Below are positions 6,564 through 59,033 of a stretch of DNA of 64,000 nucleotides, one piece after another. Position numbers and translations under genes: made by a program. The DNA comes from Minisyncoccota bacterium. GTDB lineage: Bacteria; Patescibacteriota; Minisyncoccia; Phycocordibacterales; UBA2100. The stretch spans positions 125,945 through 189,944 of the forward strand of contig JAYWCB010000005.1 in assembly GCA_043780835.1 (NCBI GenBank), given 5' to 3'. The stretch's first letter is position 1, and every line of letters starts with the position of its first letter. The notes beneath the pieces are model-generated. The model made no database searches, was not told the DNA's origin, and saw only the letters and a program-made list of their open reading frames with translations.

Positions 6564-7082
6564 ATGAAAACAAAATACATTATTGGCTTCATTGTTGGAG
6601 CGGCGGTACTGCCGTTGCTCGCAATTGTATTAATCCCCACTCCGAAGCCGCAGGCGGCGAGACCTCTGATGGGCGAGAAAATGACTGATCAGACTGCCAC
6701 ACACATCGAACGTGGGGCGGCACATGCGGCATACAACTCGGATCCGCCGACGTCAGGCGTACATTGGGGAGATGGCGTCGCGGGAGCTGGCATTAAGACT
6801 GAACAGGTCCCTGATGAACTTGTGCTACACAGTATGGAGCACGGTGCGGCAGTTATTTGGTACAAGGCAGACCTTGCAAAAGACGAGATTGCGAAAATTC
6901 AGGGCGCGTTCGATGCAGCAAAGATCGCGAAGAAAATCATGGTGCCCCGTACAAATCTCGACGTACCCGTCGCGCTCGTCTCGTGGGGCTACCTGCTGAA
7001 GCAGAAAACGTTAGATCCTGCACAAATCACTGCATTCTTATTGTCGAACAATGGACGCGGTACGGAAAACTCACCAATCTAG
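6564..7082 (+). CDS. DUF3105-like membrane-anchored protein
   Basis: N-terminal TM then HIERGAAHAAYNSDPPTSGVHW...LHSMEHGAAVIWY; internal Met of table ORF 6519..7082 taken as start. Confidence 0.45.
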   Translation: MKTKYIIGFIVGAAVLPLLAIVLIPTPKPQAARPLMGEKMTDQTATHIERGAAHAAYNSDPPTSGVHWGDGVAGAGIKTEQVPDELVLHSMEHGAAVIWYKADLAKDEIAKIQGAFDAAKIAKKIMVPRTNLDVPVALVSWGYLLKQKTLDPAQITAFLLSNNGRGTENSPI

Positions 7083-8384: not shown

Positions 8385-8524
8385 TCACAACATTGTCCTA
8401 CCTTTCCATACCCTAAGGGATGACACTAGATGCCCTAGGGCGTCAAGAGCGTCCTGAGTAGCCAAGGTGTTGGTAACTAAAATGTGCCGAAAAGCACTGA
8501 AAGCGGGTTGGATAAATGAGTAGC

Positions 8525-8569
8525 AAACGACGGCCACATTTGGTAAGTGGCCGTCGTTTTATTTTTCTT
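8525..8569 (+). terminator. rho-independent terminator
   Basis: AAACGACGGCCAC..GTGGCCGTCGTTT stem then TATTTTTCTT. Confidence 0.5.
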
Positions 8570-8667
8570 AATAATTCCAATATATAGATCCAATATACTT
8601 AGCTCGACTTCTTAAATACTTGTTGTAATCTTCTATCTAGAAGCAACCATTTTAGAGAGGTCTAAAC

Positions 8668-23454: not shown

Positions 23455-23645
23455 TAGTATACGCTCAACGTTTGGTTTCCATGGCTCTTATTCTAGTATA
23501 TTTGCCTGTTGGTAAGTCCCTTCGCAAAACCCTGAAATCTGCTAGGGTGCAAATTGATAGCCTAAAGTGCTATCATGTTCTTGCAGACAATTAAATAAAA
23601 GCCGACCTAACCCCTTTGGAATTTCCAGAGGATATGGTTGCAAAC

Positions 23646-23797
23646 CCCGCTAGAGATCAAAGGACTCCTCGTCAGAGTCACTCTAGCGGGTTATATCGGG
23701 AAACCGGTATAGGTGGGAGCCGAAAGGTTCTCATCGCGATGGCGAGGGGCCTTTTGATTACCTGAAGGTTCCCACCACTAAAATCCCGCTAGATTTT
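23646..23797 (+). promoter_or_regulatory. structured 5' leader with mutually exclusive helices (possible cis-regulatory RNA) upstream of 23798 gene
   Basis: CCCGCTAGAG (23646-55) and CCCGCTAGA (23785-93, followed by TTTT and the ATG) can both pair with CTCTAGCGGG (23681-90); internal GAAA-tetraloop hairpin and GGTGGGA..GGTTCCCACC helix. Confidence 0.3.
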
Positions 23798-24445: not shown

Positions 24446-24634
24446 ATGGCAATTCTCTCAAAACAAAGCGCTACAGAACTTCGCCGTATCATCAAGGAGG
24501 CTACAGGTCGCAACATTTCAGTCGGCGAAGCGTATGCCATCTGGCACTATCTTCTGAAACTACTACAGTTACTGTGGAGGATAGAAAAGAGACAAAAAAT
24601 CCAACCGCAATCAGATCAGTTGAGTCTTTTCTAG
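24446..24634 (+). CDS. small hypothetical ORF (62 aa) at edge of phage-derived segment
   Basis: ORF only; contains the ATAGAAAAGAG repeat. Confidence 0.2.
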   Translation: MAILSKQSATELRRIIKEATGRNISVGEAYAIWHYLLKLLQLLWRIEKRQKIQPQSDQLSLF

Positions 24635-26178
24635 AAAATACCAGGAATTCTCGAACGAACAGTAATTTCTGTATCGGGATCAATAATGTCATCCGGAAAC
24701 CGTCTCGGTGTACCGTACGATGTTGGACCACGCCAGGTGTCGCTACTACTGTATCCCATGAATTTTGTAAGATGAATGACGAGCATGGTGAGAGCGTCAC
24801 AGAGATCATCGTGATTCTCTAACCCAAAATTGACGGCTTGGTTAATGATCTCTTCGCATCCTCGATGGAATACTATCTGCCCATTTTGAATCAGTGCACC
24901 AATGCTCATAAGGCGCTGCTCCTTGCTTCCGTATATGTTGGGATAGAACTCAGATACCGGATAGCCTTGGTGATTGAGGTCTTGGAAGATATATACCTGC
25001 GCCTGCACTGCCTCTACAACGATTTGAGTTCTCAGGCCAGCAGCTCCCTTAGTCGATATTTCTTTTATCTTTTTAATAATATCTCCGAAGTCGAGTCGGT
25101 CGTTATAGTAGATGGGCGAGATATAAATCTTCGCCTTGTTGCCTGACCCATAGAGATGGCCATGCACGATCGCAGTAGGGTCAGTGCCTTCTTTGTTCTT
25201 CGTACCCGGATCAACGGCAGTCACAGACATCCGGTATCGGAGAACGGGATCATTTTTATCAGGGAGAACGTCGTAGTACGTAATCCAGTCGCGTTTGATG
25301 ATCTGGTCATCATCAGCGATCACTTGCAGCAGGTACTCGCGGAACCACGTCTTGTCATTACCAATGCGCTTACGTTCGGCTTCAATTTCTGCCATCGTCG
25401 GAAATTTACCTGGCCACATACTCTCGCCGTTGCGACCTATAAGCACATACTCTCGGTAGATGCCTGTAGTCATACCGTCGCCGATCTCTTGCTTGAGTCG
25501 CATGACAAGACAGTGTTCGTGTAAGACGTTCCCAATCACGATGAATCGTGTGCGTTTCGATCCGAGCGGCATAACCTCGCCTTTGAACCAGTTATATATC
25601 TTCTCTCGACCTTCTTTCGTACGTGCCGACTGAAGGTCCTCGGGGTCATCGATAATCACGAGATCTGGGCGATGTTGGAGATGCTTGATGCCTCGAATAG
25701 CCTCACTGACAGAGGCTACTGAGATACGTGCTCCAAGCTTAGTGAAGACTATGGTGGATGCGCCCCATGTGTCTGTTTCCTCCCGAAATGGCCCCAGCGT
25801 GCGCCGCAGAACCTCATTGTGCTCAAGAGCACCACGCAGGTTCATCATGTGCTGTTTTGCCTGGCTCTGGGTTTGAGCGACTATGAGCACGAACTTCTTT
25901 TGCTGGATACCCAAGATCGCCCACAGCACATACGAGAGTGTAAGCAGTGTACTTTTCGCACTGCCACGAAATGCGACAAGGCACAGTAGATTCCAGTCCG
26001 TCCGCTCGGTAAGTGCAAATATCTCATACTGGAACGGAGCTGTTTCGTACTCGACGTATTCTGCAAAGAAGATGTTGAAAAACCATAGGTGAGATCGTCG
26101 AGTCACGTAGCTTCGCACGAGTTTGTTCTTGCAGATCATTTCAAGAACGTCCTGCCGGAGTGTTTTATTGCTTTTCAT
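24631..26178 (-). CDS. phage terminase large subunit (Terminase_6-like ATPase + RNaseH-like nuclease)
   Basis: Deviant Walker A AFRGSAKST, Walker B LVIIDDPED, C-terminal nuclease Asp cluster (AVDPGTKNKEGTDPTAIV). Confidence 0.75.
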   Translation of the reverse strand: MKSNKTLRQDVLEMICKNKLVRSYVTRRSHLWFFNIFFAEYVEYETAPFQYEIFALTERTDWNLLCLVAFRGSAKSTLLTLSYVLWAILGIQQKKFVLIVAQTQSQAKQHMMNLRGALEHNEVLRRTLGPFREETDTWGASTIVFTKLGARISVASVSEAIRGIKHLQHRPDLVIIDDPEDLQSARTKEGREKIYNWFKGEVMPLGSKRTRFIVIGNVLHEHCLVMRLKQEIGDGMTTGIYREYVLIGRNGESMWPGKFPTMAEIEAERKRIGNDKTWFREYLLQVIADDDQIIKRDWITYYDVLPDKNDPVLRYRMSVTAVDPGTKNKEGTDPTAIVHGHLYGSGNKAKIYISPIYYNDRLDFGDIIKKIKEISTKGAAGLRTQIVVEAVQAQVYIFQDLNHQGYPVSEFYPNIYGSKEQRLMSIGALIQNGQIVFHRGCEEIINQAVNFGLENHDDLCDALTMLVIHLTKFMGYSSSDTWRGPTSYGTPRRFPDDIIDPDTEITVRSRIPGIF

Positions 26179-26615: not shown

Positions 26616-27890
26616 TTATATTTTCTTCGCTTTGATACCCGTCAGTGCCTCGAAGCGGTTTTTGATGAGATCACAAAAGATCGGCTCTACCTCAACGAGA
26701 TATGCTGAGCGTTTGAGCTGTTCACAGGCCACCAATGTGCTTCCAGAGCCGCCGAACAAGTCCAATACAACATCGTTTACCTTTGAGCAGCGCTTCAGTG
26801 CCTTTTCGTGGAGCGTAGGTGGCTTTTCGGTTGGATGGGTGTATTGCTGTCCCGGCAGGCGTTTGACGAGCCAGATGTCGAGGAGGCTGAGAACATCTTC
26901 AATGAGGTCATTGCCGGTGCCGATTTCTTTATTCATTACTTCGGTAAGATTGTAATGATTCTTGGAAAGATAGGGCGATCCGCGAGTTCCATACACGCAT
27001 GGTTCGTACACCTTGTTGAATGCAACCTGAGGTACAACATTCTGATTATTTTTAATCCATAAACAGGTGCGCTTGTTCTCAATACCGAGCGAGTGATATA
27101 TGTCTTGAATCATTCCGACATAATTCTGGTCACACCAGTAGAAGTAGTGAGCGTCGCTCTTTGAAAAAGTAATAGCGTTTTGTATTGTCTTCTTTAGGAA
27201 TAGTTGGTATTCATCGAACGATTTATTGTCGTCTGTCTTGCCACCGTACTTTCCCTTAGTACCGACTCCCTTGTCGTAGCTGAGGTTTATATTAAAAGGT
27301 GGATCTGAATACGTGACATCCACCTTTGTATTGCCCAGAAGTTTTTTGAGAGACTCTGGATTAGTCGAGTCTGCGCAGATCAGACGGTGTCGCCCAAGCT
27401 GATACATTTCTCCTAGCTTCGTAACTGGTTTCTTTATCGCTGTGAGTGCCTCGTCCACGTCGAATGAGTCATCTTTTATTTCGAGTGCTTCATCCCAAAT
27501 GTTGTCGAGCTCCTCCGTGCTGAACCCGATGTCGGCAAGAAGGCTTGTATCGAACTCCCGTAGCTTCTCAATATCCCAGGCTCCGACATTTTTATTCAAT
27601 CGAATATTGAGTATCTTCTCTTTCTCAATATTAGGTATGTCGAGGAAGATCACAGGCACTTCTGTATACCCGAGGTCTTTTGCGATCTTGAGGCGAAAGT
27701 GACCCCCGATCACCGTGAACTTCCGCTTCGGTGCCTTGTTTACCAGAATCGGATCAACAAAACCATTCTGTGTGATGCTTTCTGTAAGTTGTGATATTGC
27801 CGAGGTATCCCACGTGCGCGGGTTATACGCAGCGGGCTTTAGAAGATTTATAGGTACGTACTCAATTTGGAGATTATGTAGTTTGGTCAT
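26616..27890 (-). CDS. ParB-like nuclease N-terminal domain fused to DNA N6-adenine/N4-cytosine methyltransferase
   Basis: N-terminal ParB/Srx motif (IIGGHFRLKIAKDLG), motif IV SDPPF then C-terminal motif I LDLFGGSGST (beta-class order). Confidence 0.75.
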   Translation of the reverse strand: MTKLHNLQIEYVPINLLKPAAYNPRTWDTSAISQLTESITQNGFVDPILVNKAPKRKFTVIGGHFRLKIAKDLGYTEVPVIFLDIPNIEKEKILNIRLNKNVGAWDIEKLREFDTSLLADIGFSTEELDNIWDEALEIKDDSFDVDEALTAIKKPVTKLGEMYQLGRHRLICADSTNPESLKKLLGNTKVDVTYSDPPFNINLSYDKGVGTKGKYGGKTDDNKSFDEYQLFLKKTIQNAITFSKSDAHYFYWCDQNYVGMIQDIYHSLGIENKRTCLWIKNNQNVVPQVAFNKVYEPCVYGTRGSPYLSKNHYNLTEVMNKEIGTGNDLIEDVLSLLDIWLVKRLPGQQYTHPTEKPPTLHEKALKRCSKVNDVVLDLFGGSGSTLVACEQLKRSAYLVEVEPIFCDLIKNRFEALTGIKAKKI

Positions 27891-28249
27891 GTCTCTTTAG
27901 CTATGTAGTAATAGAAAAGAGCCGAGTGATCTGGCTATTGCTTCCTGATGCGGAGCCTCATCAGTACTCTAATTCGACCTACTTATGATTGGTTAACTGC
28001 TAAACTCCTCGGGCTCTTCTCGATAGAAAAAGTCTAAACGAGCTGACTGTTTATATCCGTACGAAGACCGTACGAAGGGCGAGCTCTTATAAATAACTAT
28101 ATCGGAACGCACTTCAGGCGATAGGGTTCAAAATAAGGAACTGTGGATAACAACACGCTTGTAATTCCTTGTCAATCCTTGTGAACTGGCGCTTATCCCT
28201 TATAGCCAAGTACGGCCTCTTCGTATAAGTAGAGATATACTGCAACTTA

Positions 28250-28747
28250 ATGATTCGTGCGTGGTGGGTAATGTATTACTTTGTTCACTACGACGGTACT
28301 TCTGATGTCAGTGTGCCTCACTGGCATACGGACATAGAACGCGGGGCTTTGCTCCATCACTTGATCGTGCGAAAGTATTTCAGAGAGGATGTTGTAGATA
28401 CATTTGAACGTTGGTGGTACACATTTGTACTACGTCGATCAATCATACAAGAAAGTCCCGCAAGGAAGCGTAGGGTCGAAAAGAGATTTCAAGAAGTGAA
28501 TGATGCAATTGATAAAACAATTGACCTTAAATATATATTTCCAGTGCCCGGTCAAAGTACTCATACTCTTTCATACAGGGTACGACTCGATCATAATTTC
28601 AAAGGTCGCGAGTTCATAAAGCCACACTACTTCCTAAAAGCTTGTCTGCAAGAATTTGACCCGGTTCTGAGGTTCTTTTTAGGTGGTAGTGTCGGTGCGA
28701 TGATAGTCGCAGGTATCTGGTTGTATAATCACTTCAATGTCCGCTGA
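28250..28747 (+). CDS. hypothetical protein (165 aa)
   Basis: ORF only. Confidence 0.3.
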   Translation: MIRAWWVMYYFVHYDGTSDVSVPHWHTDIERGALLHHLIVRKYFREDVVDTFERWWYTFVLRRSIIQESPARKRRVEKRFQEVNDAIDKTIDLKYIFPVPGQSTHTLSYRVRLDHNFKGREFIKPHYFLKACLQEFDPVLRFFLGGSVGAMIVAGIWLYNHFNVR

Positions 28748-28941
28748 GAGGCTAAGATACGCGTAGGGACAAGATGGAAAGTAAGACAGATCAAAAGTAG
28801 CCCTTAAAGTAGCCCTTACTGTGTCTCATTTGTCTCATTAACAAAAGTCGACCCTGCTGTTGACTCCTCGGTAAACAACGGCAAAAATAGCCAGAAAACC
28901 CTTGTGGGGCTTGGAGGCCTGAGTACTAACTGCGGACGGCC

Positions 28942-28970
28942 CGCAATGACTCAAAAAACGCGCCGCAGGG
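28942..28970. terminator. bidirectional rho-independent terminator hairpin
   Basis: AAAAAACGCGCC-gcag-GGCGCTTTTTTG. Confidence 0.5.
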
Positions 28971-29317
28971 CGCTTTTTTGATTCATCATTGCGAGTAAGA
29001 GAGAGGGATTTGAAAGCGAGCCCTGGGGCCCCATCAGTAGATGGGGATGGGCGAGCAGGGCTGAGAGGAAAAACTTTGCGACGGCAAAGTTTTGAGCTCT
29101 TGGCCAAATCTCTCTCAAATAACGCCGAGTTGGGGTCGCACAAAATTGCAGCAGCGATTTATGAGTGACCAAATCCCTCTTCATATATCAAGTTCTTGAG
29201 TTGTCACTCCGGAAGCCGGAGCTGGAAAGTGAGCGGAAAATATCATTCAATCGGTAGATCAATGAATGAGTTGTTGTAATCGTGGAAGCATGGCACTGAT
29301 ATACTCAAGCAAACGCC

Positions 29318-30151
29318 ATGTTCCGTATTTTCCGTAAAACGAGCACATATATGCTCCTGTGCATCGCGATGCTCATAGGACTTTATGTTGTCTTTGCATT
29401 CATCACCCACCCGTCGCTTGACCGTAATTGGACACCTGATCAGAGTGTACTCGCGCGCGCAAAAATCAATGGATCGTTAGTCAATATAAAAAATATCCGA
29501 AACATTAACTATCGGAGTGTGTCTGACTACGACGTTCGCTACTATGACAAAACCTTTAATGTAAATGATATCGAATCTGCATGGTTCGTCGTTGAGCCGT
29601 TTTCAGGTCATGGATTTGGTGCGGCACATACGCTGGTTTCGTTCGGTTTTAAGGGTGGAGAGTATGTGGCGATTTCCGTGGAAATCCGCAAAGAAAAAGG
29701 GGAATCGTTTTCACCGATCTTGGGAGTGCTGCGTCAGTACGAAATCGTGTACGTGATAGCCGACGAGCGCGATGTCATAAAATTGCGAACCAATTACCGC
29801 AAAGACGATGTCTTTTTGTATCCGATACATACCACAAAGGAAAATATGCGTAAAATGTTCCTGTCGATGGTTACGAGGGCTAATACTCTTGCCACGTACC
29901 CCGAGTTTTATAACACGCTCACGAACACGTGTACGACAAACCTCGTCGCCCATGTAAATGAAATCGTGCCGGGACGAATTCCGTTTAGTTATAAAATTTT
30001 GATGCCTGCATATTCAGATGAACTAGCCGAGAAACTCGGTCTGATCGATTCAACGCTGCCGATCACCGCATTGCGCGCGCAGCACCTGATAAATGAGAAA
30101 GCATTGCGCTATGCTGATGACCCGCTTTTTTCTGAAAAGATTCGACAATAG
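29318..30151 (+). CDS. DUF4105-like membrane-anchored protein
   Basis: N-terminal TM; DRNWTPDQ...VEPFSGHGFGAAHTLVSFGF...AISVEIRKEKGESFSPILGVLRQYEIVYVIADERD pattern recalled for DUF4105/Lnb-N. Confidence 0.5.
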   Translation: MFRIFRKTSTYMLLCIAMLIGLYVVFAFITHPSLDRNWTPDQSVLARAKINGSLVNIKNIRNINYRSVSDYDVRYYDKTFNVNDIESAWFVVEPFSGHGFGAAHTLVSFGFKGGEYVAISVEIRKEKGESFSPILGVLRQYEIVYVIADERDVIKLRTNYRKDDVFLYPIHTTKENMRKMFLSMVTRANTLATYPEFYNTLTNTCTTNLVAHVNEIVPGRIPFSYKILMPAYSDELAEKLGLIDSTLPITALRAQHLINEKALRYADDPLFSEKIRQ

Positions 30152-37681: not shown

Positions 37682-38038
37682 ATGAATAGGGAACGGTTCG
37701 CTGACTTTGTGCTCCGTGCAGGACTTGCGTTTGCATTCCTGTATCCGCCGATCAATGCGATATTCGACCCCAACGCATGGATAGGCTATTTTCCCTCGTT
37801 CCTGCGAGGGCGTGTGGAAGATCTCGTGCTCCTGCATACGTTCGGCCTCATAGAAGTCATCATTGCGCTCTGGATACTCAGCGGTAAACGAATTTTCTGG
37901 CCCTCAGCTGCGGCATTCGTTATGCTCATCGCCATCGTGACAATGGACTATACGGAGTTTCAAGTCGTATTTCGCGACCTCTCGATCGCCACCATCGCGC
38001 TCTATCTCGCGATACGAAACTATCCCCGTTCGGCATAA
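37682..38038 (+). CDS. small membrane protein (DoxX-like?)
   Basis: 118 aa, 3-4 TM. Confidence 0.3.
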   Translation: MNRERFADFVLRAGLAFAFLYPPINAIFDPNAWIGYFPSFLRGRVEDLVLLHTFGLIEVIIALWILSGKRIFWPSAAAFVMLIAIVTMDYTEFQVVFRDLSIATIALYLAIRNYPRSA

Positions 38039-38052
38039 CAATTCGAACATAA

Positions 38053-38082
38053 GAAAAACCCGTGGTACCACGGGTTTTTCTT
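38053..38082 (+). terminator. rho-independent terminator
   Basis: AAAAACCCGTGG-TA-CCACGGGTTTTTCTT. Confidence 0.6.
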
Positions 38083-38098
38083 ATGACATAGTGTTCCA

Positions 38099-38644
38099 AT
38101 GATGTTCGAAAATGCAGGTCGCGAATATAAAAAGCGACTCGAAAGTAATCGGGAACGTTTTGAGAAAGCAGGCGAATCAATTAAAACAATACAAGAAATG
38201 GAGAACCTTTTTCATGAGCATGAGGCTCTTTTGCAGAGAGCTTCAACGGGAGAAATTGATACGGAAACCTATATGCTAGAAAAAGAGCGGCTGGATACGG
38301 CGCTCGGCGCCGTCGAAGTCGACTCAATCATGGAGCTGCGTACGCTTTTAATCGAGGCTGGTTATGCGGATGAAGAAGCTGACTATTGGGCTGCACACGA
38401 AAATGCTCACGCGAATAAGGCCCAAGAGCTCGGTCTGCCAGTGCAGTACCAGGTCTTTCGAGCGACACATCGGGACGCAGATGGCACCGTTACACGAAAA
38501 ATACTGCCCGCTGTCTCGGTCGGATATAACGCTGAACAGACGCATGCGGAACGTGCAAAAGACAATCGCGCTGTAACATCCGCGCCAGACGAATTGAGTG
38601 AGGGTGATAAGCGCGTGCTCGGGTCATTCGATAAAGGCAACTAG
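38099..38644 (+). CDS. hypothetical protein (181 aa)
   Basis: ORF; acidic, helical. Confidence 0.4.
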   Translation: MMFENAGREYKKRLESNRERFEKAGESIKTIQEMENLFHEHEALLQRASTGEIDTETYMLEKERLDTALGAVEVDSIMELRTLLIEAGYADEEADYWAAHENAHANKAQELGLPVQYQVFRATHRDADGTVTRKILPAVSVGYNAEQTHAERAKDNRAVTSAPDELSEGDKRVLGSFDKGN

Positions 38645-50219: not shown

Positions 50220-50690
50220 ATGAAACGAGTGGCAGAACTGCAGGAAAAGGTAGGGAAACAAGCAGGGGGATTTTTCAGTGAATTTTGGGCCTTTGCCGCA
50301 AAAGGGAATGTATTTGATCTCGCGGTTGCGGTGATTTTGGGCAATGCATTCGGTGCGGTCGTCAATTCATTTGTGGCGGATGTGGCAATGCCGTTACTTT
50401 CTATCGCAACGGGCAATCTGCAGGATCTGAGCGGGCTCAAATACACCTCGCCCGGCGCACGTGTCGTCATAAGCTACGGACACTTGCTTCAAGTGTTCAT
50501 CAACTTTATCGTGATTGCGCTTTCGATTTTTGCGATGTTTAAACTCATCACCGGCGTTCGAGCGCGTCTTGCCCGAAAAGAAGAGGCAAATCCGGAAACA
50601 AAGCCAGAACCGACAGAAGATCAGAAAATTCTCATAGAGATCCGTGATGCGCTCATGCAGCATCTTGATTCGCATCACCGCGAGTCCTAA
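50220..50690 (+). CDS. mscL: large-conductance mechanosensitive channel
   Basis: EFWAFAAKGNVFDLAVAVILGNAFGAVVNSFVADVAMPLL. Confidence 0.85.
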   Translation: MKRVAELQEKVGKQAGGFFSEFWAFAAKGNVFDLAVAVILGNAFGAVVNSFVADVAMPLLSIATGNLQDLSGLKYTSPGARVVISYGHLLQVFINFIVIALSIFAMFKLITGVRARLARKEEANPETKPEPTEDQKILIEIRDALMQHLDSHHRES

Positions 50691-50743
50691 AAGGAAAATT
50701 CCCGAGAACGAGTCCCGGGAATTTATTTGTGTGCATCGGAACG

Positions 50744-51082
50744 TCAGTTCCGGTTGGTGTGCGCGATCGCGGTCGGTTCGGCGTATTCAGGTATATACAC
50801 GGTGCGTCGTACGACCGTAACACCGTCTTCCGATTTCAGTCGGGATTGCTTCTCGCGAAGCAGCGGTTCGACCGTATCGGGATAAAATGCGATTTCACAG
50901 AGTGAGATTGCTTCTGCTTGATCGTGAGCATCGATCGACGCGCGAAGTGCCATGATCGAGCCTGTGGAAGTTGCGAACAATTTCCAACAGGCGTAGGTCC
51001 GCTCTCCGTCCTCAACAGCGTGTGCCGCCAAGGGAAGAAGTGCGGTAAGCGTTACTCCCAACAGTAGTTTTTTCATTTTCAT
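50744..51082 (-). CDS. small secreted hypothetical protein
   Basis: Signal peptide MKMKKLLLGVTLTALLPLAAHA. Confidence 0.45.
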   Translation of the reverse strand: MKMKKLLLGVTLTALLPLAAHAVEDGERTYACWKLFATSTGSIMALRASIDAHDQAEAISLCEIAFYPDTVEPLLREKQSRLKSEDGVTVVRRTVYIPEYAEPTAIAHTNRN

Positions 51083-58521: not shown

Positions 58522-58827
58522 ATGCAAACTGCATCCGTCATTGTGAATCGGCTGGTTGATCTCATCATCAACCCGCTGATTCTTTTGGTGTTTGCAGGGG
58601 GTTTCTTCTTCTTTATGTACGGACTGGTCAATTTTCTATGGAATTCGCGCGAAGGGGAAATCGCAACTGAGGGAAAACAACACATGCTGTGGGGAGTGGT
58701 GGGCATGTTCATTATGGTCTCTGTGTACGGGATCATTACCATCATTACCGGCACATTCGGGATCAATGGTCAGAATGCTACCGACACGAGCAATGCCGGG
58801 AGTTACAGCAACATTCAGTTTAAGTAA
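58522..58827 (+). CDS. pilin-like small membrane protein, paralog 5
   Basis: 2 TM; IMVSVYGIITIITGTFG. Confidence 0.4.
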   Translation: MQTASVIVNRLVDLIINPLILLVFAGGFFFFMYGLVNFLWNSREGEIATEGKQHMLWGVVGMFIMVSVYGIITIITGTFGINGQNATDTSNAGSYSNIQFK

Positions 58828-58989
58828 AGACTCGGTCATGCGCTCAAAAGTTTTTAATGTACCGCGCAGGGAAAGACTCGGTCACAGATAATTTCTTCGC
58901 CGCCGCTCGGAAATTTCCGCGACCCCGACTCGCGGTTCGGCCTGCTAGCCTCACATCCGCTCCGTCCTTCGAGTCTCCCTCCGCCCTCC

Positions 58990-59030
58990 AAAAAGCAAAA
59001 ACCGACGCTGCGCGTCGGCCTCTGCTTTTT
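58990..59030. terminator. bidirectional terminator (pilin array on + / tRNA-Leu on -)
   Basis: CCGACGC-tgc-GCGTCGG flanked by A-run and T-run. Confidence 0.55.
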
Positions 59031-59033
59031 CTG

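Follow-up and report, generated by a model that had tools for sequence, protein, structure and literature searches.

The stretch of DNA analyzed in this work (hereafter, the window) consists of 64,000 nucleotides of contig JAYWCB010000005.1 from the Minisyncoccota bacterium assembly GCA_043780835.1, and it harbors, between positions 28,748 and 29,317, a non-coding spacer rich in helices whose element core (28999-29183, plus strand), lying behind a terminator at 28941-28993, is referred to as locus 1. We found that locus 1 has a homologous second copy, locus 2, attached to the 3' end of a tRNA-Leu gene of the same window, and that units sharing this layout stand behind tRNA genes in other Patescibacteria contigs. 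The puzzling spacer is accordingly read here as a relic copy, and not as a riboswitch or a phage site; with somewhat less than even confidence, we suggest that it belongs, as a decayed copy deprived of its tRNA, to a family of structured units attached to the 3' ends of tRNA genes, most probably miniature, non-autonomous and gene-less insertion (attachment, att) cassettes. In the best reading of the data, the members of this family are short, non-coding, self-folding units of about 120-220 nt that follow a tRNA gene immediately on its 3' side and share its orientation, each of them composed of a terminator hairpin, a strand S (an antisense copy of the segment running from the T-loop to the acceptor), one to three hairpins, and one or more sense copies, S'.

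According to this scheme, the parts of locus 1 are the following:

28941-28993, both strands: long palindrome (inverted repeat) CGCAATGACTCAAAAAACGCGCC-GCAG-GGCGCTTTTTTGATTCATCATTGCG, a bidirectional intrinsic terminator by score
28999-29012, plus strand: strand S, GAGAGAGGGATTTG, the 5' strand of the closing helix P1
29016-29056, plus strand: hairpin P2, apex CCCCATC-AGTA-GATGGGG, pair probabilities 0.91-1.0
29047-29118, plus strand: module a, made of the conserved lead-in GCGAG..GGG, P3 and S'1 (29105-29116), pair probabilities 0.94-1.0
29059-29105, plus strand: hairpin P3, apex AAAACTTTGC-GACG-GCAAAGTTTT, in module a
29110-29134, plus strand: P4, weak, in the ensemble fold
29121-29184, plus strand: module b, made of the lead-in AACGCCGAGTTGGGG, P5 and S'2 (29170-29181), a tandem duplicate of module a
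29135-29169, plus strand: hairpin P5, in module b

The core of the palindrome is a GC stem (28960-28973) between runs of A6 and T6. Strand S can pair over 12 bp either with 29105-29116 or with 29170-29181, and it has two alternative partners because the hairpin-plus-S' module is tandemly duplicated, the partners being the ends of the two modules. The alignment of module a with module b scores 28.5, against 14.7±2.75 for shuffled sequences, a value not reached by any of 1000 dinucleotide shuffles (module a also scores 77.6 bits with model R3, which was itself built from module a). The ensemble strongly favors a multi-branched fold closed by P1, with 29001-29012 paired to 29170-29181 (probability about 0.97); the same helix formed with the proximal partner, 29105-29116, is dearer by only 2.3 kcal/mol. 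The folding energy of 28990-29190 is -87.2 kcal/mol on the plus strand (z -6.3), with none of 200 shuffles as stable, and -70 kcal/mol on the minus strand (z -4.6). In a scan of 639 plus-strand windows of 200 nt across the whole stretch, the segment 29001-29200 ranked second, after 58901-59100, which includes the beginning of locus 2, and before a known RNA of the LOOT family, which came third. The original prediction, based on the letters of the sequence, had described this region in very similar terms: the strand with two alternative partners was found as proposed, the hairpins all lie where they had been placed or within a few bases, in a fold that exceeds chance, and the long palindromic terminator, reported at 28933-28980, was located at 28941-28993, with a terminator score on both strands.

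The second copy lies on the minus strand, and its surroundings are organized as follows:

59115->59033, minus strand: tRNA-Leu, immediately 5' of locus 2
59030->58990, minus strand: palindromic terminator of tRNA-Leu, immediately 5' of locus 2
58821-58986, minus strand: locus 2, with S at 58986->58968, hairpins at 58967->58884, S'1 at 58883->58869 and S'2 at 58837->58822

The homology of locus 1 and locus 2 is shown by a covariance model derived from the single sequence 28999-29183, which matches 58821-58981 (minus strand) over its full length with 24.4 bits (E-value of 1e-3 for 495 kb searched and of 2.6e-4 for the window; no other match in that stretch exceeds 5.7 bits). In addition, the alignment of 29117-29190, corresponding to module b, with the first module of locus 2 (58945-58866) scores 41, against 15.1±2.8 for shuffles, none of which, out of 1000, scored as high. 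Both copies exhibit the order terminator-S-hairpins-S'-S', and both are located directly behind a palindromic terminator with flanking A-tract and T-tract, in the same relative orientation. The 12-bp terminal strands pair inside each copy and differ between the copies by compensatory change, and the equivalent of P2 at locus 2 likewise keeps its pairs through changes on both sides. In the model-fitted alignment of the two loci, 16 pairs are changed on both sides and still pair, and 95.9% of the cells are paired, a share that drops to 48% or less on sliding the partners; since such an alignment is biased towards structure, these counts are taken as supporting evidence only. Searches of the 64 kb with blastn, nhmmer and covariance models, a search for further copies having been suggested with the original prediction, disclosed these two loci only, and no target-site duplication was seen flanking them.

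The link with the tRNA is evident at locus 2, where S (GGGCGGAGGGAGACTCGAA) is the exact reverse complement of positions 59053->59035 of tRNA-Leu (19 of 19 nt, a match found in none of 300 shuffles). The block copied in S extends from the T-loop to the last acceptor base and, counting the CCA, S is complementary to the end of tRNA-Leu over 22 of 23 nt. The direct repeats of locus 2 are decayed (15 of 17 nt with a 2-nt gap) and not significant alone. The extreme folding of 58901-59100 (z -10.5) is due to the long inverted repeat formed by the 3' end of tRNA-Leu, the terminator and the 19-nt antisense copy. At locus 1, S read as its reverse complement, TTCAAATCCCTCTC, resembles a tRNA T-loop followed by the 3' strand of the T-stem, and it is probable that this strand, too, is tRNA-derived; because no tRNA adjoins it, this view rests on the resemblance and on the homology to locus 2. 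The three short-site copies present at locus 1 share only CAAATC-CTCT, about 12 nt.

The analysis was extended to the 13 non-redundant tRNA loci present in all the DNA fetched. An inverted copy of the tRNA's own 3' end (11-19 nt) was detected within 400 nt downstream of four of them and upstream of none of the 13, and three of these four loci also possess a perfect direct copy:

tRNA-Leu of the window: inverted copy of 19 nt, no direct copy of 9 nt or more
tRNA-Arg of contig L034: inverted copy of 13 nt, direct copy of 15 nt by script and 18-19 nt by eye
tRNA-Ser #1 of contig L006: inverted copy of 11 nt, direct copy of 22 nt
tRNA-Ser #2 of contig L006: inverted copy of 14 nt, direct copy of 23 nt

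The units of locus 2, L034 and L006 are attached to tRNA 3' ends, carry both antisense and sense copies of them, and can be arranged in tandem. L034 belongs to the genome with the closest relative (77% identity) of the Lnb_N protein encoded to the right of the spacer; its unit, lying between tRNA-Arg and the direct repeat, is matched by the two-sequence model with 18.5 bits (E about 1e-3), and it has the GCGACGGC loop of P3 of locus 1. In L006, three tandem units follow one tRNA-Ser, each unit order being terminator hairpin, anti-acceptor strand, small hairpin, anti-T-arm strand, long hairpin and sense tRNA end from the T-loop; the third tandem unit has an uninterrupted S, as the window copies do, and an equivalent of the terminator hairpin occupies the same position at locus 2 and in the L006 units. 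In both L006 and L034 the inverted and direct copies extend past the end of the mature tRNA into the gene flank, and therefore they were made at the DNA level.

The DNA next to these units has features of its own. At L006:54-1073 (plus strand) there is a truncated large serine recombinase gene (Recombinase and Zn_ribbon_recom domains, no resolvase domain) that converges on tRNA-Ser #1, and whose 3' end overlaps the tRNA-linked unit. This truncated gene, together with the phage remnant near locus 1, indicates that these sites collect mobile DNA; no recombinase could be assigned to the units. In L034, the DNA downstream of the tRNA-Arg unit contains two copies of an AT-rich motif, TTATTCAATATTCATTAT, spaced by about 430 nt (L034:6525-6545 and 6955-6975, minus strand), which may delimit another small insertion.

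In every unit, the minimum-energy fold is closed by the S:S' helix, with z-scores ranging from -3.1 to -11.1:

Locus 1, full element: z -7.1
Locus 1, core: z -8.0
Locus 2, core: z -3.1
L006, unit 1: z -11.1
L006, unit behind tRNA-Ser #1: z -9.3
L006, unit 3: z -5.3
L034 unit: z -6.2

Between the two tRNA-Ser loci of L006, the units show 79% identity and the tRNAs themselves 67%. The alignment of the units, which is based on sequence, contains 60 consensus pairs, 12 of them compensatory and none broken. The differences in S and S' from one unit to the other are exactly those of the tRNAs, and nine of the 12 compensatory pairs fall in the terminator and in the internal hairpins, which are unrelated to the tRNA sequence. 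This distribution, with compensatory pairs largely outside the tRNA copies and no pair broken, argues that the fold itself is under selection.

The most likely role of the family would be that of miniature gene-less insertion cassettes for tRNA 3' ends, which are a classic integration target. Position, sense copies starting at the T-loop, replacement terminator and tandem accretion are all hallmarks of integration into tRNA genes. Genetic elements that integrate into tRNA genes are known to leave partial tRNA copies behind (PMC9897764). As for the choice of the site within the gene, the tyrosine-integrase literature offers a precedent. The T-loop and the 3' end are reportedly among the integrase sublocations distinguished in tRNA genes by Williams in 2002. 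On these bases the following scenario appears the most likely. In the single-stranded state, S would pair with S' to give the closed multi-branched fold, so that the resulting helix would be a double-stranded replica of the 3' end of the tRNA gene. An inserting unit would regenerate the tRNA end, bring its own terminator and leave the displaced end as S', and in this way units would accumulate one after the other; they would be moved by a recombinase provided in trans, which might act on the folded strand. The locus 1 copy presumably lost its tRNA, or might have been carried off from it, ending beside a degraded prophage, and it has also duplicated its hairpin-plus-S' module.

Several data weigh against this scenario. 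Locus 1 is not adjoined by a tRNA (its strand is free of tRNAs within 30 kb), the window contains no tRNA that ends in TTCAAATCCCTCTC, and no integrase was found among the window ORFs (open reading frames) tested. A unit of 140-220 bp is very small for recombination through a double-stranded circle, and ordinary att scars have no antisense copy. The sequence similarity among genomes is also limited: the window copies and the L034 unit are not significantly similar by plain alignment (55-62 of 400 shuffles score as high), neither covariance model matches the L006 units, and locus 1 is only marginally similar to one of them (6 of 400 shuffles); the unity of the family across genomes thus rests mainly on the shared layout. 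Lastly, the selection acting on the hairpins would fit a functional RNA equally well.

This last point leads to the main rival explanation, rather unlikely in our opinion, according to which the units are functional RNA elements of tRNA 3' trailers, acting on the sense strand. When transcription reads through the terminator, the S:S' helix would form a minihelix mimicking the acceptor and T-stem, and this mimic could signal processing, act as a decoy or regulate the cognate tRNA; locus 1 would be a relic or the leader of the Lnb_N gene. The fact that all the helices are kept by compensatory changes and that the acceptor and T-stem pairs of the neighboring tRNA recur in the S:S' helix is in agreement with this idea, as is the strand preference: the sense strand folds better than the antisense one at both locus 1 (-86.6 vs -69.5 kcal/mol) and locus 2 (-59.9 vs -45.8 kcal/mol), and P3 and P5 of locus 1 contain four G-U pairs of high probability that are specific to the plus strand, where forbidding G-U pairs costs 13 kcal/mol, against less than 3 on the minus strand. 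However, the young L006 units show no such asymmetry, the units start just past an intrinsic terminator (about 15 nt at locus 1) with no promoter-like site ahead of S, and no gene follows locus 2 on that strand. Moreover, nine of the 13 tRNA loci have no unit, which, therefore, is not a general requirement of tRNAs, and the tandem arrays and the tRNA-less copy are suggestive of selfish more than of functional sequences. If an RNA were nevertheless made, it might be read from the other strand, as a small RNA starting within 29184-29317 and ending at the bidirectional terminator (locus 1), or, at locus 2, as the 3' untranslated region (3' UTR) that would extend the transcript of the pilin-like gene 58522-58827 as far as the tRNA terminator. 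At both loci the complement of the element does run directly into a terminator scoring on that strand, the usual layout of small RNAs and 3' UTRs, and locus 1 retains a good fold on the minus strand (z -4.6); but the antisense strand folds 14-17 kcal/mol worse at both loci, with the loss of hairpin P5, 29184-29317 has no promoter-like site on it, and both the link to tRNA ends and the tandem units would be left unexplained, so that we regard an antisense product as very improbable.

It can also be supposed that the units are neither mobile nor functional, being a neutral by-product of local DNA errors at tRNA terminators, with template switching that extends the palindrome and slippage, or unequal crossing-over between short direct repeats, that duplicates the units. 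The palindromic terminator is indeed flanked by S and by the tRNA 3' end, the L006 and L034 copies were made at the DNA level and run into the gene flank, and slippage would account for both the tandem arrays and the internal module duplication of locus 1. What makes this explanation improbable is that three genomes exhibit this layout, in association with four or five different tRNAs, that the internal hairpins are homologous between loci and maintained by compensatory changes (12 of 60, none broken), and that a non-complementary gap of 4 nt separates S from the terminator palindrome at locus 2. The slightest probability is assigned to an origin from the adjacent phage remnant (24631-27890), as put forward in the original prediction, with the element as its scar or as one of its att, cos/pac or operator sites. 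The remnant, with its ParB-methylase, terS and terL genes, does lie 1.1 kb to the left, and the one inverted and two direct copies of the short site are reminiscent of cosB terminase-binding sites. Yet a gene of cellular type, ORF165, intervenes between remnant and element, related phage contigs (L016 and L017) have no similar sequence, phage, plasmid and viral collections gave no match, and neither locus 2 nor the L034 unit has adjoining phage genes. Nothing was found that ties the element to the neighboring phage; the att component of that proposal gains some ground from the attachment of the family to tRNA 3' ends and from its sense copies; on the whole, the observation made from the sequence is confirmed and its interpretation partly supported.

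Among known systems, a close likeness is seen with the attL and attR copies of tRNA ends left by the tyrosine integrases of prophages, integrative and conjugative elements and genomic islands, which share with the units the position 3' of a tRNA, the sense copy from T-loop to 3' end (18-23 nt, perfect, in L034 and L006), the tandem accumulation at one tRNA and the replacement terminator after it. The units differ from them in having 120-220 nt between the repeats with no integrase or other gene, an extra antisense copy, and internal hairpins kept by compensatory change; locus 1 differs also in having no tRNA, whereas locus 2, L034 and L006 do lie at tRNA 3' ends. Short, non-coding, intergenic and strongly folding sequences with complementary ends are also found among pneumococcal BOX (boxA-boxB(n)-boxC), enterobacterial repetitive intergenic consensus (ERIC) and Correia elements, which resemble miniature inverted-repeat transposable elements (MITEs), and the tandemly repeatable internal module of BOX recalls modules a and b. 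Those elements, however, are not tied to tRNA ends and have terminal repeats conserved in sequence between copies, whereas the terminal strands of the units vary by copy and match the local tRNA, with two copies in 64 kb; a MITE/BOX-like repeat was rejected on these grounds and for the missing flanking duplication. An 18-nt primer-binding site complementary to a tRNA 3' end, as in retroviruses and long terminal repeat (LTR) retroelements, resembles S of locus 2, but there is no reverse transcriptase or LTR nearby and locus 1 lacks the TGG. Furthermore, in L006 S continues into the gene flank (GGGC, GCGC) and not into CCA, which indicates copying from DNA and not from the mature tRNA; together with the lack of a nearby reverse transcriptase, this weakens the retroelement idea.

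Purely by analogy, the units may be compared with integron attC sites and with attP(+) of the CTX phage, in which inverted target-like copies 60-100 nt apart fold into a replica of the target duplex, extra hairpins and bulges are tolerated, and arrays grow beside a primary site regenerated each time; here, the would-be target is a tRNA 3' end instead of attI or dif, and there is no cargo gene. An integron attC site as such was discarded, the boxes RYYYAAC and GTTRRRY being absent at the module ends on reading the sequence and no integrase being found. The traits that are out of the ordinary for tRNA integration, that is tiny size, absence of genes, antisense copy and selected hairpins, are those that recall attC and attP. 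They invite a distinctly unlikely speculation, in which gene-less mini-elements of the Candidate Phyla Radiation (CPR) would recognize tRNA 3' ends through the folding of nucleic acid: the single-stranded S:S' of an incoming, replicating or transcribed molecule might rebuild the target duplex, a host or helper recombinase might insert it, with restoration of the tRNA end and room for further units in tandem, and S and S' might be re-templated on each new tRNA. Equally, the helix might be a mimic of the acceptor/T-arm minihelix, produced from read-through trailers and acting on tRNA-handling enzymes.

The possibility that the spacer is degraded coding sequence was ruled out by codon usage and by an empty six-frame protein search. 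In 28748-29317 no coding signal was detected: the codon scores of the three ORFs that cross the element are negative and favor no frame, these ORFs are absent from the protein collection, the source annotation calls no gene there, all six-frame stop-free segments of at least 25 amino acids, joined as a query, retrieved no protein at E<=10 among 5.8 billion, and neither Pfam nor PHROG gave anything above noise in the span. The description of a 1.4-kb gene-poor tract without a convincing ORF thus holds for 28780-29317, which is non-coding, and not for the wider tract, where ORF165 (28250-28747) is a real gene. Likewise, the candidate non-coding RNA stands as regards its non-coding nature and exceptional structure, but not as a member of an Rfam family: the Rfam/Infernal check that had been suggested yielded, for the whole window at the gathering thresholds of Rfam 15, only LOOT and tRNA-Leu, and at E<=10 in 27850-29400 only short chance matches (15-21 bits against thresholds of 35-80). 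The curated RNAs of Rfam 15, such as the LOOT RNA of the window, are similar to the element in folding z-score, intergenic position and host lineage, and differ from it in that no model matches the element even at E<=10.

Other candidates were also rejected. ARAGORN found tRNA-Leu as the sole tRNA or tmRNA of the window, with none at locus 1, and a decayed tRNA array or tRNA pseudogene was discarded, neither window copy aligning to tRNA-Leu better than shuffles beyond the 19-nt inverted block. A riboswitch or attenuator leader of Lnb_N disagrees with the homologues, which have no similar leader, and with locus 2, where no gene follows on the element strand. Prophage att repeats were dismissed, as no direct repeat joins the two flanks of the phage remnant. 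For retrons, group II introns, IS110 bridge RNAs, IS200/IS605 ends, 6S RNA and T-boxes the defining partner gene or motif is absent, and those of them with an Rfam model gave no match. No DNA similarity of the element to Escherichia coli genomes, phages or plasmids was found, nor exact or gapped element patterns in viral contigs, where the module pattern matched nine times, against roughly 14 expected by chance (an estimate), none of the matches extending under the model. Literature searches retrieved no description of such tRNA-end-linked units, and the family appears to be undescribed.

If the family is real and active, it would add to the tRNA genes of CPR bacteria an associated element or RNA module of a new type, very small and devoid of proteins; these are bacteria whose non-coding DNA is almost unexplored. 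Its signature (tRNA, terminator, antisense 3' end, hairpins, sense 3' end) can be surveyed in all genomes. The units possibly explain stray tRNA fragments in these genomes, and they offer a testable link among tRNA 3' ends, terminators and site-specific insertion.

The genetic surroundings of the spacer comprise the following features:

23604-23732, plus strand: LOOT RNA (RF03000), 73 bits against a threshold of 46.4
24631-26178, minus strand: large terminase (terL) of the phage remnant
26165-26614, minus strand: small terminase (terS) of the phage remnant
26616-27890, minus strand: ParB-N6/N4 DNA methylase of the phage remnant
28250-28747, plus strand: ORF165 (165 amino acids), a real gene bounding the non-coding span on the left, outside the element
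28794-28817, plus strand: tandem AAAGTAGCCCTT, two exact copies, in the trailer of ORF165
28822-28839, plus strand: tandem TGTCTCATT, two exact copies, in the trailer of ORF165
29208-29222, plus strand: small hairpin CTCCGG-aag-CCGGAG between the element and the Lnb_N gene, with no U-run after it and no terminator call
29318-30151, plus strand: Lnb_N (DUF4105) gene, the right neighbor of the spacer, followed by a MAPEG gene

The two tandem duplications, which had been noticed at about 28794-28845, are thus exact, with two copies each, and show no link to any function. The phage remnant (24631-27890, minus strand) consists of three apparently intact genes with no portal, capsid or integrase gene beside them; IMG/VR contigs related to it (58% identity) run on into a portal gene. 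A further exact tandem repeat, CCGTACGAAG, present twice with an 11-nt period (28057-28077), is found in the 359 nt that separate the divergently oriented methylase and ORF165 genes.

ORF165 seemed to be an orphan by word-indexed search, and exhaustive phmmer assigned it to a small family of uncharacterized proteins: among 1.84 billion representatives it has 40 homologues, mostly near-full-length, the best one with 46% identity (E 2.6e-32). Its C-terminus is a hydrophobic helix, its own frame is the best of the six by codon usage, and Pfam and PHROG scans gave no match. The DNA located 3' of the genes for its homologues is unrelated to the element. Next to one of them (L019:4773-5410, the same gap occurring in L020-L022), and adjoining a Fic/antitoxin pair, there are 637 nt without a called gene that contain several hairpins and are unrelated in sequence to locus 1.

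The nearest named relatives of Lnb_N are annotated as Kaiserbacteria, Paceibacterota and Minisyncoccia, and T4SS-pilin-like proteins, typical of CPR, are encoded nearby; like the presence of the LOOT RNA, both findings point to a Patescibacteria (CPR) origin of the window. The Lnb_N homologues (38-77% identity) retrieved from GTDB genomes, JGI metagenomes and the protein collection have other neighbors and are non-syntenic, without a similar leader. About 2.3 kb 3' of one of them, in a related Patescibacteria genome (L036:13100-14505, L037:13101-14508, L038:3907-5315), bAvd and reverse transcriptase genes resemble a diversity-generating retroelement.

The fold scan also disclosed four further plus-strand segments (50601-50800, 62201-62400, 38001-38200 and 8401-8600) with z from -4.9 to -5.9 and no Rfam match, which may be terminators or further unclassified structures. 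The LOOT RNA, whose name stands for Latescibacteria, OD1, OP11 and TM7, has a YibE/F membrane-protein gene on one side and ORF198 on the other, and lies where the island with the phage remnant begins on the left.

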